DNA of 64,000 nucleotides from Nesterenkonia sp. (GTDB lineage: Bacteria > Actinomycetota > Actinomycetes > Actinomycetales > Micrococcaceae): NCBI RefSeq assembly GCF_029265375.1, contig NZ_JAJUJJ010000010.1, forward strand, positions 11,531 through 75,530. Direction: 5' to 3'. How positions within the stretch are numbered: position 1 is the first letter of the stretch; each line of letters starts with the position of its first letter. This document shows positions 16,848-21,627 of this stretch, piece by piece. Under the pieces are notes generated by a model. That model was not told the origin of the DNA and made no database searches. It saw only the letters and a program-made list of their open reading frames with translations. Made by a program: the position numbers and the translations under genes.

Positions 16848-17771
16848 ATGCAGTTCACCAAGGTGCACGCCACCGGCAACGACTTTGTGCTCGTAGCCGA
16901 CCCCGCCGGATCCCAACAGCTCGACGCCGAGCTGGTCGCCGCACTGTGCGACCGCCACCGGGGAATCGGCGCCGACGGGCTGATCCGTGCCGTGCCGGCC
17001 CACCTGTTCGACGCCGGTCGCGCCGAACTGGCCGCAACCGGGCTGACCAGCACCGACCAGGCGCCGCTGTGGTTCATGGACTATCGCAACAGTGATGGAT
17101 CCGTCTCCGAGATGTGCGGCAACGGCGTGCGGGCCTTCGCCCACTACCTGCGTGCCCAAGGACTGGCGAGTTTTGCCGAGGACACCCTGCCCGTCCTCAC
17201 CCGCGGCGGGCTGAAGACCGTGCGGCAGTCAGAGGAAGGCTACGCGGTCAGCATGGGAGTGTGGTCCTTCATCGACCCCGAGCTCGCCTCCGAACGGGCC
17301 AGCGACTCCCTGGTCCGTGCCGCAGGGCTGTCCGAACCGCGCCCGGCCCTGAGCATCTCCATGGGAAACCCGCACACAGTCGTGGCGCTCTCTGAGCCGG
17401 CCGCGCTGCAGAACCTGGATCTGCACCGCGCCCCGACCGTGGACCCCACGCCGCCGAACGGCACCAATGTGGAGTTCGTGGTGCCGGCCGAACCGCTGGT
17501 CGAGGCAGGTGTGGGCCGGGTGCGCATGCGCGTGCACGAACGCGGCGTGGGGGAGACGCTCTCCTGCGGCACCGGAGCCTGCGCGGCCGCTGCGGCAGTC
17601 CGCGTCTGGGCCGCCGGAGACGGGGTGGACACCTGGCGAGTCAGCGTGCCCGGAGGCAAGGTGACCGTGCGGTTCAGCCAACGCAGCGACGGCGCTGAAG
17701 AGGTGGAGCTCTCCGGACCCGCCACGCTGGTCTACACCGGGGAACTCACCGCCGAGTACCTCCCGCAGTGA
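16848..17771 (+). CDS. dapF: Diaminopimelate epimerase
   Basis: HATGNDF, EMCGNG, MGNPH, ERGVGETLSCGTG. Confidence 0.96.
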   Translation: MQFTKVHATGNDFVLVADPAGSQQLDAELVAALCDRHRGIGADGLIRAVPAHLFDAGRAELAATGLTSTDQAPLWFMDYRNSDGSVSEMCGNGVRAFAHYLRAQGLASFAEDTLPVLTRGGLKTVRQSEEGYAVSMGVWSFIDPELASERASDSLVRAAGLSEPRPALSISMGNPHTVVALSEPAALQNLDLHRAPTVDPTPPNGTNVEFVVPAEPLVEAGVGRVRMRVHERGVGETLSCGTGACAAAAAVRVWAAGDGVDTWRVSVPGGKVTVRFSQRSDGAEEVELSGPATLVYTGELTAEYLPQ

Positions 17772-19098
17772 CATCCTGCCCCGGAGGCACAAACAGGCGA
17801 CCAGCCTCGGCCCTGAGAGTGCGCAGCACCAGCGAGGTGAACAGCACCGTCCCCACGGCCAAAGAGCGACGGCGATCCAGCGTCTCAGCCAGCTGAGCCG
17901 ACCCGGGGGCGGCGTGGACACCGGACTCGCCCAGATCCTCCAACCGCAGCCAGTGCCAGCCCGGAGCATCCGGCCACTGGCCGCGATCCGGCACACCGAT
18001 ATAGGCCCCCGGAAGCTCCACGAACACTTTCGGCCCGGAGAAGTCCTCCAGCTGGTGGACGAAACCATCCAGATCCTTCGACGGCGGCAGGCAGACCAGC
18101 ACCTGGTCCAGCCCATCCAGCTCGGCGGCGGCGAACCGGCGGGCCCCAGCCAGGCCGTCTGCTGAGACCGCCGAGTCGACCACCACGCGGCCGCCGCTGC
18201 CGGCGTCGTGCACCGACAGCCTGCCCGGATAATGCACCGAGCCCACCACAGCCTCCGCCGCGGCCGGCGTCGCACCGGCGGCGGGAACCGGCAGCGCGAA
18301 ACCTGCCGTCAGACCGGCCGCGGCATTGTCCCGGGCGTAGCCGGCAGGAAGATGCGCAACCAGCGCCGTCGCCTGCGGGGAAGCCGTCAGCAGACGCGCC
18401 CCGGCGGAAGTGCAGGCTTCCTGGACGATCTGGTGGACCTGCGCGGACTGCGGAAGGCTGACCACCAGCCCGGTGCCCGGACGGATCACCGCGGCCTTAT
18501 CGCGGGCCACATCGGCCACCGTGGGGCCCAGTATGTCCAGATGCTCAGCGAAGATCCCGGTGACCACCACCGCAGTCAGCGGCCAGTGCGAAAGATCATC
18601 CGAACCGCCCCCGATACCGGCCTCCGCCACCACTGCCTCCACCTGCTCCTCGGCGAAGATCAGCATGGCCATCACAATGAACAGTCCGGTGGGGGCTAAG
18701 TACCCGCTCGACGCCGTCGGCTTCGGCAGTCCACGCACAGCCTCAGCAATCCGCAGCAGCGCCCGGCGTCGCGCCCGAGCATCTGCGGCCTGCCCGTCAA
18801 CGCGGATCCGGTCCGCATTGGAGACCGCCCCCGGGCTCATCACCGTTCCGACCCGCACCCCGCGGGCGGCCAGTGCGGCCGAGGCGTAGGCGGCCGCCGT
18901 GCCTTTGCCCTTGGAGCCGACCACCCCCAGGATCGGTGCGGGACTGCGCTGCGGGTCCACCCCCAGGGCCTCCAGCAGCGCGGCGGTGCGCTGCAGCGAC
19001 CGTGAGCTCACCGCGCGCAGCGCACGCCACTCGGAGAAGATGACCTCTTCCTCCAGCTCCTCCAGCGGCAGGGCATCCAGGCGAGCAGCAGCCGTCAT
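17746..19098 (-). CDS. Divergent FolC/Mur-ligase-family ATP-dependent ligase
   Basis: GVVGSKGKGT P-loop, EAGIGG, AEHLDILG...DKAAVI and PGRL align to the FolC scaffold but with motif substitutions. Confidence 0.75.
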   Translation of the reverse strand: MTAAARLDALPLEELEEEVIFSEWRALRAVSSRSLQRTAALLEALGVDPQRSPAPILGVVGSKGKGTAAAYASAALAARGVRVGTVMSPGAVSNADRIRVDGQAADARARRRALLRIAEAVRGLPKPTASSGYLAPTGLFIVMAMLIFAEEQVEAVVAEAGIGGGSDDLSHWPLTAVVVTGIFAEHLDILGPTVADVARDKAAVIRPGTGLVVSLPQSAQVHQIVQEACTSAGARLLTASPQATALVAHLPAGYARDNAAAGLTAGFALPVPAAGATPAAAEAVVGSVHYPGRLSVHDAGSGGRVVVDSAVSADGLAGARRFAAAELDGLDQVLVCLPPSKDLDGFVHQLEDFSGPKVFVELPGAYIGVPDRGQWPDAPGWHWLRLEDLGESGVHAAPGSAQLAETLDRRRSLAVGTVLFTSLVLRTLRAEAGRLFVPPGQDVTAGGTRR

Positions 19099-19778
19099 CG
19101 CTGTCCCCCGCCGGAAGTCTGCCCGGCGCCGGTCTGTCCGCCTGTCCCGCCGGAGCGCGCCTGCCCGTCAGCCGCATGGCGCGCCACGCGCAGCAGCCGG
19201 AACCCTTTCTGACTGGCGGCCCGCTCCACAGTGAAGGCCTCCTGCAATTGCCCGGCCAGCCAGCGCTGCAGCGAGTCGGCCCCCAGGTTCTTCTGCACCA
19301 CCAGCCAGGCCTCGCCGCCGGGCGCCAGCCGCGGCAGCCAGCGCAGCAGCAGCTCGTGCAGGGCCGGCTTCCCGATGCGGATCGGCGGGTTGGACCAGAT
19401 GGTGGAGAACTGCAGATCGGCAGGCACCTCCTCGGGCGGGAGAACCAGCACAGTGTCCAAGCCCAAGGCGGCGGCGTTCTCCGCGCACAGCGTGCGGGCC
19501 CGCTCATTGACGTCCACCGCCCACACCGTGGCCTGGGGCGCCCGCATCGCCAGGCTCAGCGCAATCGGGCCCCAGCCGCAGCCGATATCCAGCAGATGCC
19601 CGCCCTGGGCGGGGTCCGGCACCTCCTGCAGCAGCACCCGGGTCCCCTTGTCCACGCCGTCGGGGGAGAAGATCCCCGGTGCGGTGCTCACCGTCACCGA
19701 TCGGCCAGCCAGCTGCACCTCGAGGCTGCGCCGCTGGAACGGGCCCTCAGGGGAGGTGAAATAATGCGAAGAGTCCAT
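19095..19778 (-). CDS. Class I SAM-dependent methyltransferase (MTS/RsmC-like)
   Basis: SHYF, GIFSPDGVDKGT, LDIGCGWG, WAVDVNERA, SNPPIRIGK; start at ATG 19778. Confidence 0.9.
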   Translation of the reverse strand: MDSSHYFTSPEGPFQRRSLEVQLAGRSVTVSTAPGIFSPDGVDKGTRVLLQEVPDPAQGGHLLDIGCGWGPIALSLAMRAPQATVWAVDVNERARTLCAENAAALGLDTVLVLPPEEVPADLQFSTIWSNPPIRIGKPALHELLLRWLPRLAPGGEAWLVVQKNLGADSLQRWLAGQLQEAFTVERAASQKGFRLLRVARHAADGQARSGGTGGQTGAGQTSGGGQR

Positions 19779-19785
19779 CGGTTGA

Positions 19786-19798
19786 ATCGTAGTACGAT
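19786..19798. promoter_or_regulatory. Palindromic bidirectional -10 element
   Basis: ATCGTA-G-TACGAT; each TACGAT lies 7 nt from an ATG (19778 on -, 19806 on +). Confidence 0.65.
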
Positions 19799-19805
19799 GG
19801 ACATT

Positions 19806-19853
19806 ATGTGGATTCGCCCGACCCAGTACGCACGGCCCCGCTTCGCAGCCTGA
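19806..19853 (+). CDS. Putative leaderless leader peptide of hflX (MWIRPTQYARPRFAA)
   Basis: TACGAT-N7-ATG; 15 codons then TGA; 130 nt upstream of hflX. Confidence 0.5.
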   Translation: MWIRPTQYARPRFAA

Positions 19854-19983
19854 GTACTTCAGCCCGCTCCCGGACACGGCCCTCGCAGCGCCGCCGGTTG
19901 AGCCTGCTCGACCATCCACTCGAACAAGACCCGCGCATCGCGCCGCCTGAGGCGACGCCGTCATCGGCGCGGGCAAGGAATAT

Positions 19984-21627
19984 ATGACTGAACAGAAGAA
20001 ATCTTCGCACCCGTCGACGGTCGACGAGACCATCGCCCGCATCCTCGCGGCCGATAAGGCCCGCGTCACCCCGTTCATCGCCGACGAGCAGCACCGCACA
20101 GACGCCCCAGACCAGCCCGAGTCCGCTGACCAGGCTGAGTCCGGGGACCAGAACGGTGCCCGGCAGCAGTCCGAGGACCACGACGACGCCGGCCGCGGTG
20201 TTCTGGACGGCCGGGCCCGTGAGCTGGCCGAGACCGAGGCCCACACCGTACACGACGGCGACCAGTACGACCTCTTCGAACGCCGCAGCCTGCGGCGCGT
20301 GGAGGGACTCTCCACCGAGCTGGAGGACGTCACCGAGGTCGAATACCGGCAGCTGCGCCTGGAGCGTGTGGTGCTGGCCGGCCTCTACACCTCCGGGAAC
20401 GCGGCAGAGGCCGAATACTCGCTGCGTGAGCTGGCCGCCCTGGCAGAGACCGCAGGATCCACTGTGCTGGACGGCTTCCTGCAGCGCCGCGCGACCCCGG
20501 ACCCGGGCACCTACTTCGGCTCCGGCAAGGCCCTGGAGATCAAAGATGCGGTGGCCGAACTCGGCGCCGACACCGTGATCGTGGACTCCGAGCTGGCGCC
20601 CTCCCAGCGCCGCGGCCTGGAGGACATCGTCAAGGTCAAGGTCATCGACCGCACCGGCCTGATCCTGGACATCTTCGCCCAGCACGCCAAATCCCGCGAG
20701 GGCAAGGCCCAGGTGGAGCTGGCGCAGATGGAGTACATGCTCCCGCGCCTGCGCGGCTGGGGCGAGTCGCTCTCCCGCCAGGCCGGCGGCCGTGTGGGTG
20801 CCGCTGGCGGCGGCATCGGATCCCGCGGCCCCGGTGAGACCAAGATCGAGCTGGACCGCCGCCGCATCAACCAGCGGATGGCCAAGCTGCGCCGTGAGAT
20901 CGCCGCCATGAAGCCAGCCCGGGAGGCCAAGCGAGCCAATCGCAGGCGCAACGCGGTGCCCTCGGTGGCCATCGCCGGATACACCAATGCCGGCAAGTCT
21001 AGCCTGCTCAACCGCCTCACCGACGCTGGGGTGCTGGTGGAGAACGCACTGTTCGCCACCCTGGATCCCACCACCCGCAAAGCGGTCACCCCGGACGGGA
21101 TCGGCTACACCCTCTCCGATACTGTCGGCTTCGTCCGTCAGCTGCCCACCCAGCTGGTGGAGGCCTTCCGCTCCACCCTGGAAGAGGTGGCCGATGCGGA
21201 CCTGATTCTGCATGTGGTCGACGCCTCCCACCCGGAGCCGGAGAGCCAGATCGCCGCAGTGCGCAAAGTGCTGACCGAGGTGGATGCGCACCAGGTGGAC
21301 GAGATCATCGTGCTGAACAAGGCCGATGCGGCCGAGGACCACGTGATCGACCGGATCCGCCGTCGTGAACCCCATGTGGCGGTGGTCTCAGCGCACACAG
21401 GTCAAGGCATCGAGGAGCTGAAGGAACGCATCGCAGCGGCGATCCCGCGGCCCGACGTCGCCCTGGAGCTGCTGGTGCCCTACGCCTACGGTGAGGTGGT
21501 GTCCCGGCTGCACGCCGAAGACGCCGAAATCCTCTCCACCAGCTACCAGGAGGAGGGCACTCGGCTCAGCGTGAAGGTCCGTGCGGCGCTGGCTCCGGAC
21601 CTGGCCGCATACCAGGTGCGAGACTGA
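19984..21627 (+). CDS. hflX: Ribosome-splitting GTPase HflX
   Basis: DRTGLILDIFAQHA, EGKAQVELAQ, GPGETKIE, GYTNAGKS, LFATLDPT, DTVGF, NKAD. Confidence 0.97.
   Translation: MTEQKKSSHPSTVDETIARILAADKARVTPFIADEQHRTDAPDQPESADQAESGDQNGARQQSEDHDDAGRGVLDGRARELAETEAHTVHDGDQYDLFERRSLRRVEGLSTELEDVTEVEYRQLRLERVVLAGLYTSGNAAEAEYSLRELAALAETAGSTVLDGFLQRRATPDPGTYFGSGKALEIKDAVAELGADTVIVDSELAPSQRRGLEDIVKVKVIDRTGLILDIFAQHAKSREGKAQVELAQMEYMLPRLRGWGESLSRQAGGRVGAAGGGIGSRGPGETKIELDRRRINQRMAKLRREIAAMKPAREAKRANRRRNAVPSVAIAGYTNAGKSSLLNRLTDAGVLVENALFATLDPTTRKAVTPDGIGYTLSDTVGFVRQLPTQLVEAFRSTLEEVADADLILHVVDASHPEPESQIAAVRKVLTEVDAHQVDEIIVLNKADAAEDHVIDRIRRREPHVAVVSAHTGQGIEELKERIAAAIPRPDVALELLVPYAYGEVVSRLHAEDAEILSTSYQEEGTRLSVKVRAALAPDLAAYQVRD

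Follow-up and report, generated by a model that had tools for sequence, protein, structure and literature searches.

The subject of this analysis is the region upstream of hflX in a 64,000-nucleotide (nt) stretch of Nesterenkonia sp. DNA (the window; coordinates are positions within it, and L-numbers are labels of compared loci). HflX is emerging as a factor in ribosome rescue and in resistance to macrolides and lincosamides, and the single hflX gene of this genome is preceded on the same strand by a 15-codon upstream open reading frame (uORF) that follows a promoter element at close distance. Comparison with related species indicates that the uORF is real and conserved throughout the genus, and that it most likely acts as a sensor of stalled ribosomes, e.g. 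under macrolides, that controls hflX. On sequence comparisons, we consider it probable that a translated, leaderless leader peptide serves as the cis-regulatory sensor of the sole hflX gene. The genes and expression signals of the locus are the following:

19793..19798, + strand: -10 hexamer TACGAT of the promoter predicted to start a leaderless uORF-hflX transcript; TAnnnT lies at like spacing in all Nesterenkonia loci
19806..19853, + strand: 15-codon, putatively leaderless uORF MWIRPTQYARPRFAA with its stop codon; its length is fixed and its codon changes are synonymous or conservative
19975..19979, + strand: Shine-Dalgarno (SD) sequence AAGGA of hflX; GGGCAAGGAA is invariant in the clade
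19984..21627, + strand: hflX, 547 amino acids; Pfam GTP-bdg_N, GTP-bdg_M and MMR_HSR1; NCBIfam TIGR03156 GTPase HflX, 442.9 bits
19095-19778, - strand: methyltransferase, small-domain (MTS), RsmC-like, divergent from hflX; start ATG at 19778-19776

The uORF, its promoter and its conservation

The uORF reads ATG (19806-19808), TGG ATT CGC CCG ACC CAG TAC GCA CGG CCC CGC TTC GCA GCC and TGA (19851-19853). Seven nucleotides (ggacatt) separate TACGAT from its ATG, 130 nt separate its stop codon from the hflX ATG (19984), and codons 10 to 12 (19833-19841) encode R-P-R, a +x+ motif. An earlier note on this DNA had described a uORF of this length and placement with an R-P-R matching the R/K-x-R/K macrolide arrest motif, and both are present as described. 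A 15-codon ORF is on its own unremarkable in GC-rich DNA; what sets this one above chance is its modal leaderless spacing, together with its retention, with coding-type substitutions, in 31/31 Nesterenkonia loci. Genome-wide, the distance from TAnnnT to the start of long ORFs peaks at 6-7 nt (187 and 210 cases versus a background of about 45), so leaderless mRNAs are common in this genome, and the 7-nt spacing of the uORF falls on this peak. We infer from this spacing that the uORF transcript is leaderless and starts at the uORF ATG. A genome-wide search for TAnnnT-N6-8-ATGTGGA with the same peptide returned solely the hflX locus and no second copy. A 59-codon ORF running from GTG 19808 to the ATGA at the hflX start was set aside as a chance open frame in GC-rich DNA; it is interrupted by stops in many species, and the frame is broken between species, whose leaders differ in length by non-multiples of three.

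No promoter-like TAnnnT occurs between the uORF and hflX (19854-19983) in the window's clade, and all hflX transcripts should therefore carry the leader. Proximal promoter-like elements near hflX are present in most other Nesterenkonia clades, Arthrobacter, Kocuria and Rothia, the hexamer being TAGGAT or TATTCT in other Nesterenkonia clades and Arthrobacter. The window's clade appears to have lost the proximal promoter, and hflX there would depend wholly on the uORF promoter. In L016-L030 and L042 the element lies ~45-60 nt upstream of hflX and reads CGTAGGATGG, or TATTCT, TAGACT or TAGAAT.

Conservation was assessed over 31 Nesterenkonia species loci, the counts from which are not independent events, since the species are related. 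A short ORF starting 7 (rarely 8) nt after TAnnnT was found at all 31 hflX loci, and the divergent methyltransferase-hflX arrangement is likewise kept in 31/31. The encoded peptides comprise 15-codon forms following MWIR(P/L/I)xxYAR(P/L/H)(R/K)xx(A/V), forms of 12 to 14 codons (MWIHLTYSRPRG, MWIRHTVFARPRG, MKIWARTAFIRLRG) and 6-codon forms (MWIYFI, MWIHFI, MWIIYL, MWIPHP, MRLYRI). The R/K-x-R/K motif is present in 22/31 loci. The earlier note had named conservation of the uORF and of R-x-R in related hflX leaders as a check of its proposal: the uORF is conserved in every locus and its peptide appears constrained, but the motif is not universal.

At the codon level, compared among the ten closest leaders, the uORF is 15 codons long in 10/10, M-W-I-R is invariant, Arg4 is encoded by CGC or CGT and Ala9 by GCA or GCC, and all four proline codons (CCC, CCA, CCT, CCG) are used at Pro11. 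Codon 12 is CGC, CGT or CGA, and AAA in two species, where the change from Arg to Lys needs three base changes. This pattern of codon changes points to selection on the peptide, and the uORF is very probably translated. That the uORF is untranslated, with its conservation reflecting promoter and RNA structure and the ORF being incidental, has some appeal in that ATGTGGAT is also a partner in a long-range leader pairing and parts of the ORF lie within hairpins (both described below); it is nevertheless highly improbable, given that frame and length are kept, that four proline codons and an Arg to Lys change via AAA are tolerated, that the MFLIFE form of other genera changes only synonymously, including TAA/TAG, and that the other frame is not kept through leader length differences that are non-multiples of three.

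The UGG of codon 2 is invariant in Nesterenkonia except in L014 and L042, which would suit an attenuator in which ribosomes pause at this Trp codon or at the Arg codons when charged tRNA is scarce and thereby control hflX, and leaderless amino-acid-sensing short ORFs do exist in mycobacteria (bioRxiv 10.1101/834739). Such a starvation attenuator is nonetheless the most improbable of the explanations considered. There is a single Trp codon and no run, the uORFs of other genera (MFLIFE, MILLFA) contain no Trp, UGG belongs to the long-range pairing (GUGGAU), and hflX is unlinked to amino-acid biosynthesis.

Beyond the genus, the methyltransferase-hflX arrangement was present in 80/80 Micrococcaceae loci fetched, and leaderless-type mini-uORFs occur at the same place in many Micrococcaceae genera. 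The hexapeptide MFLIFE accounts for 37 of the 39 MF-type uORFs (Arthrobacter, Pseudarthrobacter, Paenarthrobacter), the remaining two being MFLVFE and MFLNFK, and the 39 sequences vary almost only synonymously (TTC/TTT, CTG/TTG, ATC/ATT, TAA/TAG). Further forms are MILNFQ, MILLFA (Micrococcus), MWISLR (Citricoccus), MTFLPA and MTLLRA (Zhihengliuella) and MWIK (a metagenome-assembled genome). No uORF was found in Kocuria, Rothia and some others, which have a short intergenic region with the proximal promoter only. A leaderless short uORF was absent from the 20 hflX upstream regions examined in other families of the order, of which 17 keep the divergent methyltransferase. MFLIFE was also considered as a leader of other resistance genes and rejected in that role, with no extra link: each genome that has it carries a single copy, and these genomes, 6 among the 201 sampled from the family, belong to one GTDB genus.

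RNA structure of the leader and the output step

The predicted RNA elements between the uORF start and the hflX SD are the following, P0 designating a pairing of the transcript's 5' end with a segment about 100 nt downstream:

19808..19816, + strand: P0 segment 1, GUGGAUUCG (uORF codons 1-4), pairing with 19909-19919 in the minimum free energy (MFE) structure
19825..19858, + strand: hairpin H1' around uORF codons 7-15 and the stop, AGUAC 19825-19829 with GUACU 19854-19858, in both MFE and centroid structures
19866..19903, + strand: hairpin H1, GCUC-CCGG...CCGG-UU-GAGC, the most conserved RNA element of the leader
19904..19936, + strand: C-rich, G-poor linker containing P0 segment 2 (CGA 19909-19911, AUCCAC 19914-19919) and the conserved ACAAGaCCCGC
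19930..19973, + strand: hairpin H2, directly 5' of the hflX SD; its CCCGC and GCGGGCAAGGA blocks are conserved in the genus

Of these elements, H1 is the most conserved and it covaries, with 97% of cells paired, two pairs changed on both sides and none of 500 shuffles reaching the observed covariation score; variants include ACUC...GAGU, CCGC:GCGG, CCGU(G):(C)ACGG and CCGCC:GGCGG. The outer stem of H1' also covaries (CGGUAC:GUACCG in L009), and a hairpin enclosing or abutting the uORF stop codon is found in every clade. In the MWIHLTYSRPRG clade H1 lies inside the uORF, the codons CGC CCU CGC GG forming the stem and UGA falling in the 3' arm, and in the MWIIYL and MWIPHP species H1 begins 2 nt after the stop. 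In the window, P0 pairs GUGGAU-UCG (19808-19816) with CGA--AUCCAC (19909-19919), segment 2 sitting just upstream of a conserved ACAAGyCCCGC block. Other species form P0 in shifted registers (AUGUGGAU:AUCCACAU or UGGAUUCG:CGAAUCCA); locus L014, in which the uORF begins MKIW, has the compensating pair UCUGGGC:GCCCAGA, and compensating sequences are also present in L003 and in Micrococcus L105. Since segment 1 is nearly invariant, the support for P0 is partly positional rather than classical covariation. A hairpin that encloses or adjoins the stop codon, a covarying H1 and P0 together make up an architecture that is typical of ribosome-sensing leaders. An Rfam scan of 19600-20200 at E-values up to 10 returned a chance miRNA match only.

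The GC hairpin that the earlier note had drawn next to the ribosome-binding site corresponds to H2. Its arms (cccgcgc 19930-19936 and gcgcggg 19967-19973) can pair with each other, as had been stated, and stop 1 nt short of AAGGA; RNAfold returns the same hairpin in a slightly shifted register (UCGCGCCG:CGGCGCGG). Its position is conserved: H2 is kept at the sequence level in most species, and L002 and L008 have unrelated hairpins at the same place. It does not, however, sequester the SD, and the better-supported P0 and H1 were missing from that description. The absence of a U-tract, also claimed there, was corroborated by a search for intrinsic terminators (hairpin plus U-tract), which found none on the sense strand of the window's leader or of three relatives' leaders.

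To describe the response of the leader to ribosomes on the uORF, 30 leaders were folded by partition function with the uORF free, with nt 1-18 blocked, or with the whole uORF plus 12 nt blocked. Accessibility of the SD and AUG in these leaders did not change consistently between the free and the uORF-blocked state. In MFE structures the hflX SD is mostly unpaired, in the free as in the blocked state, with no duplex over that gene's ribosome-binding site, and the alternative pairings that exist in the leader do not form a consistent mutually exclusive switch. Translational control, one of the two outputs that the earlier note had allowed, is thus not supported here in its erm-type form: H2 leaves the SD free, and blocking the uORF opens it inconsistently. 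The broader proposal of a ribosome-stalling switch gains from the conserved uORF and from MsrDL-like hexapeptides in relatives, which strengthen the arrest reading, but not from the SD, at which no switch was found.

The leader is richer in C than in G (52 C versus 38 G in the window, C/G 1.37), C/G exceeds 1 in 29/30 leaders, and in most species segment 2 and the linker hold the window that is most C-rich and G-poor. A C-rich leader without a terminator is compatible with Rho. Judged from these sequences, the outputs that remain are Rho-dependent termination within the C-rich leader, shielding of the 5' end by a parked ribosome, or a subtler structural effect. With no intrinsic terminator and an unmasked SD, the output would most likely be relief of Rho-dependent termination and/or protection of the mRNA 5' end, for which the stabilization of erm mRNAs by stalled ribosomes provides a precedent.

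The same observations bear on two other explanations, both of which we consider improbable. According to the first, which we place marginally ahead of the second, the uORF would report the ease of 70S initiation on a leaderless 5' end and no specific arrest would be involved: ribosomes on the uORF would leave both segment 2 and the C-rich linker unpaired, and Rho or RNases would then silence hflX, and a scarcity of initiation-competent 70S ribosomes (stalling, hibernation) would let P0 form, compact the leader and turn hflX on. The start-codon region itself pairs in P0, nearly all of the leader is paired in the ribosome-free MFE structure (about 10 nt remain single-stranded), blocking nt 1-18 deprives the C-rich stretch at ~19904-19936 of its P0 partner, and segment 2 is, in most species, where the leader is most C-rich and G-poor. 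Leaderless mRNAs are initiated by 70S ribosomes (PMC9031893), and HflX splits 70S. Under such a mechanism the peptide should drift after its first codons; instead, MFLIFE shows synonymous-only changes across 39 loci, and P11 and R/K12 are retained.

According to the second, the uORF would be translated constitutively without sensing anything, and would simply give the transcript a ribosome-bound or paired 5' end that provides stability or a Rho-limiting coupling. That no other hflX promoter exists in the clade, so that the leader cannot be a tight off-switch, and that neither SD masking nor a terminator was found fit this explanation. It leaves unexplained the conservation of the amino acids, the arrest-type motifs (+x+, xLIFx) and the constant hairpin at the stop codon, and Kocuria and Rothia, which have no uORF, indicate that the uORF is not needed for basic expression.

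Proposed mechanism and comparison with known systems

A conserved peptide with a +x+ motif, hexamers that resemble MsrDL and hairpins close to the stop codon are hallmarks of an arrest sensor, and the uORF would accordingly be read as a leader peptide controlling hflX. In the mechanism that we favor, transcription would begin at the A of the uORF ATG and a 70S ribosome would load on the AUG at the 5' terminus. Without stress, the peptide would be completed and released, and the free 5' end would pair ~100 nt downstream, giving a leader folded into P0, H1', H1 and H2. Arrested elongation or termination on the uORF would instead leave a ribosome parked on the leader's 5' end. The likely arrest point in the window's clade would be R-P-R with a macrolide in the exit tunnel, and in the hexapeptide relatives arrest would take place at the stop codon in the fashion of MsrDL. 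The parked ribosome would hold H1' open, and in short uORFs, or where ribosomes queue, P0 would be blocked as well. Expression of hflX would then rise, most likely because Rho-dependent termination is relieved in the C-rich untranslated leader and/or the mRNA 5' end is shielded from degradation. HflX, as a splitter of stalled 70S ribosomes, would finally clear its own sensor complex and close a feedback loop. The components of this mechanism differ in strength: some form of arrest or translation-stress sensing by the uORF is a probable feature, and arrest at R-P-R that is specific to macrolides is a tentative one, with somewhat less than an even chance.

Several observations weigh against this mechanism. 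Folding with the uORF blocked gives no consistent change at the SD, hence no simple switch is visible, and the C/G skew of a single 130-nt leader is not significant alone. Arrest of one ribosome at codons 11-12 leaves nt 1-18 unoccupied, and in the 15-codon form it would therefore melt H1' and leave P0 unaffected unless a second ribosome queues behind it; on a 6-codon uORF, by its position, every bound ribosome blocks P0. Regulation could also run in the opposite direction, with uORF occupancy exposing the C-rich segment to Rho and repressing hflX. As to the peptide, the invariance of ATGTGGAT is confounded with its role in P0 pairing, and R-x-R is missing in L003, L005 and nine hexapeptide species (MWIYFI, MWIHFI, MWIIYL and similar). 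In the MWIHLTYSRPRG clade the RPR codons themselves form the conserved stem of H1, so the motif there may be a by-product of RNA structure, and in R-x-R-G-stop forms it is likewise encoded by a 4-bp mini-hairpin, CCGY-NNNN-GCGG. In the window's clade position 12 lies in a loop and R/K is kept through differing codons, which makes the peptide-level argument stronger there.

The closest known arrangements are found upstream of hflX-family genes in Listeria and Bacillales, control of this gene by arrest on a leader peptide being established in Firmicutes. In Listeria monocytogenes, rli80 carries an RLR uORF of 14 amino acids before hflXr (lmo0762), and the gene is induced when lincomycin or erythromycin stalls ribosomes there (PMC6310831), and a uORFC-6-1 motif lies upstream of hflX in Bacillales (PMC8632094). 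As in these systems, the leader described here places a uORF of 14-15 codons with Arg-x-Arg directly upstream of an hflX-family gene in a structured leader. The Bacillales leaders are SD-led, with RLR set in a covarying structure that closes with a U-tract terminator, and use an intrinsic terminator/anti-terminator, whereas the uORF here is predicted to be leaderless, with no U-tract or terminator; rli80 furthermore controls a second, resistance-dedicated paralog (hflXr), whereas the gene here is the sole hflX, in an actinobacterium. No sequence or Rfam relationship to rli80 or uORFC-6-1 was found in the scan of 19600-20200, and the arrangement is analogous, not homologous, to the Bacillales hflX leaders.

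The MsrDL leader peptide (MYLIFM) of msrD, an ABC-F gene for macrolide resistance, arrests at its stop codon with erythromycin, L3 and I4 sensing the drug, and the factor that it controls rescues its own sensor complex (bioRxiv 10.1101/2021.11.29.470318). The relatives' MFLIFE, MILLFA and MWIYFI share with it the length and an aromatic-L/I-I/L-F pattern, a likeness of sequence pattern only, and MFLIFE matches MYLIFM at L3-I4-F5; the six-codon M-aromatic-L-I-F-x form is represented by MFLIFE and, within Nesterenkonia, by MWIYFI, MWIHFI and MWIIYL. MsrDL differs in being SD-led and in preventing a Rho-independent terminator, and the window's own uORF, a 15-mer with R-P-R, does not follow the hexapeptide pattern. 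That uORF shares features with the +x+ peptides ErmDL and MsrAL: R-P-R lies near its C-terminal third, and R or K occupies both + positions in the window's clade. Features of this class that were found are a short ORF, presumably translated, directly upstream of hflX without an intervening promoter, and the R/K-x-R/K motif; exclusive RNA structures tying arrest to a terminator or to SD unmasking were not found. Leaders of the Erm type usually work by unmasking the resistance gene's SD, whereas the SD here is not consistently masked.

Leaderless short ORFs as regulators have a precedent in the polycysteine ORFs of mycobacteria, in which runs of Cys codons sense cysteine by way of ribosome pausing and release an SD-sequestering duplex (bioRxiv 10.1101/834739). 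Both are unannotated, actinobacterial and first cistrons, with downstream control proposed here; unlike the mycobacterial ORFs, the uORF has no codon run and no SD duplex, and its target is a ribosome-rescue factor. In E. coli toiL, which responds to several classes of antibiotic, drug-induced stalling at several positions induces topAI by unmasking the ribosome-binding site, with Rho as effector (PMC12121999). Both tnaC and toiL consist, like the present leader, of a short uORF followed by a long leader without a terminator; they are not leaderless, and a role of Rho here is suggested by C-richness and the absence of a terminator. In tnaC, a rut site is masked at the tnaC stop codon.

In Mycobacterium and Streptomyces, hflX is induced by WhiB7/WblC, and HflX confers resistance to macrolides and lincosamides in mycobacteria and to erythromycin in Streptomyces (PMC7157823; PMC11831132). 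The WhiB7/WblC system shares with the present locus its hflX target and the presumed input, i.e. ribosome-targeting antibiotics (PMC7157823), but its control is trans-acting and transcriptional, whereas a cis-acting uORF is proposed here, in a genome in which no WhiB7 ortholog was detected. In the window's genome the Wbl proteins number only two, one resembling WhiB1 and one WhiB2, neither with an AT-hook, and the other 80 Micrococcaceae genomes searched likewise hold two Wbl proteins each, none of the AT-hook WhiB7 type. No strong match to WhiB7 was found in these 81 genomes, in a search that could miss weak orthologs. The Micrococcaceae thus appear to be without the WhiB7 hub of the intrinsic-resistance regulon, a gap that a cis-acting uORF sensor would fill.

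Literature searches turned up no account of a leaderless uORF ahead of hflX, actinobacteria included, nor MFLIFE or MWIRP as peptides. The locus is best described as a leaderless variant of the hflX leader peptides known from Listeria and Bacillales, with no new principle. A more far-reaching proposal, which we regard as unlikely, is that these uORFs represent a class of leaderless arrest peptides not described before, with direct 70S loading, a parked ribosome that caps or unmasks the 5' end through P0 in place of a terminator or SD switch, and HflX resolving the sensor; the leader would then act as a homeostat of stalled or idle 70S ribosomes in WhiB7-less actinobacteria, and the series from 15-mer to hexamer would represent convergent drug sensing. 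If the favored mechanism is correct, it would add a third form of hflX control beside the SD-led terminator attenuator of Listeria and activation by WhiB7, in a family without detected WhiB7, and would couple a 70S-initiated sensor to a 70S-splitting enzyme. It predicts induction of hflX by drugs in Nesterenkonia, Arthrobacter and Micrococcus. The forms MWIRPTQYARPRFAA, MWIHLTYSRPRG, MWIYFI and MFLIFE provide a natural mutagenesis series for arrest by nascent chain and drug, and the uORF is a conserved short ORF of a kind that automated gene prediction tends to overlook (PMC9094748).

HflX and the divergent genes

One copy of hflX is present in the window's genome, and a single copy in each of 61 genomes searched; the second match of the search in the window's genome is a generic GTPase (E = 2e-4). 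The N-terminal ~125 amino acids of HflX (window 19984-20370) form an acidic, low-complexity extension that precedes GTP-bdg_N, the start of which NCBIfam and Pfam place near residue 129-145. The extension is strongly variable across species in length and sequence, and tblastn alignments often start at residue 30-90. In Arthrobacter-group loci (L048 ~1290-1375, L069, L087), an invariant 16-mer, GTCAGCCCAGCGCGAA, lies between the MFLIFE leader and hflX. It is preceded by a strong SD, CAGGAGG, with ATG or TTG in the hflX frame (L048, L049, L069, L087, L107) and followed by GCACTATTCTGGA, a context that points either to an HflX isoform with an N-terminal extension or to a conserved operator or promoter.

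Downstream of the divergent methyltransferase, a gene for a diverged FolC/Mur-ligase-like protein (17746-19098, - strand) has its stop overlapping the coding end of the methyltransferase (19095-19098); its product has no Pfam match at default thresholds and scores 128 bits against TIGR01499 folC, below the cut-off of 162.65. Both divergent products at the hflX locus, HflX and the RsmC-like methyltransferase, are or may be ribosome-related. The methyltransferase and uORF start codons are 27 nt apart, and the methyltransferase looks leaderless too, the minus strand reading TACGAT, 7 nt and ATG. The promoters of uORF-hflX and of the methyltransferase must overlap and are probably mutually exclusive; their opposed -10 hexamers form a perfect palindrome, ATCGTA-G-TACGAT (19786-19798).

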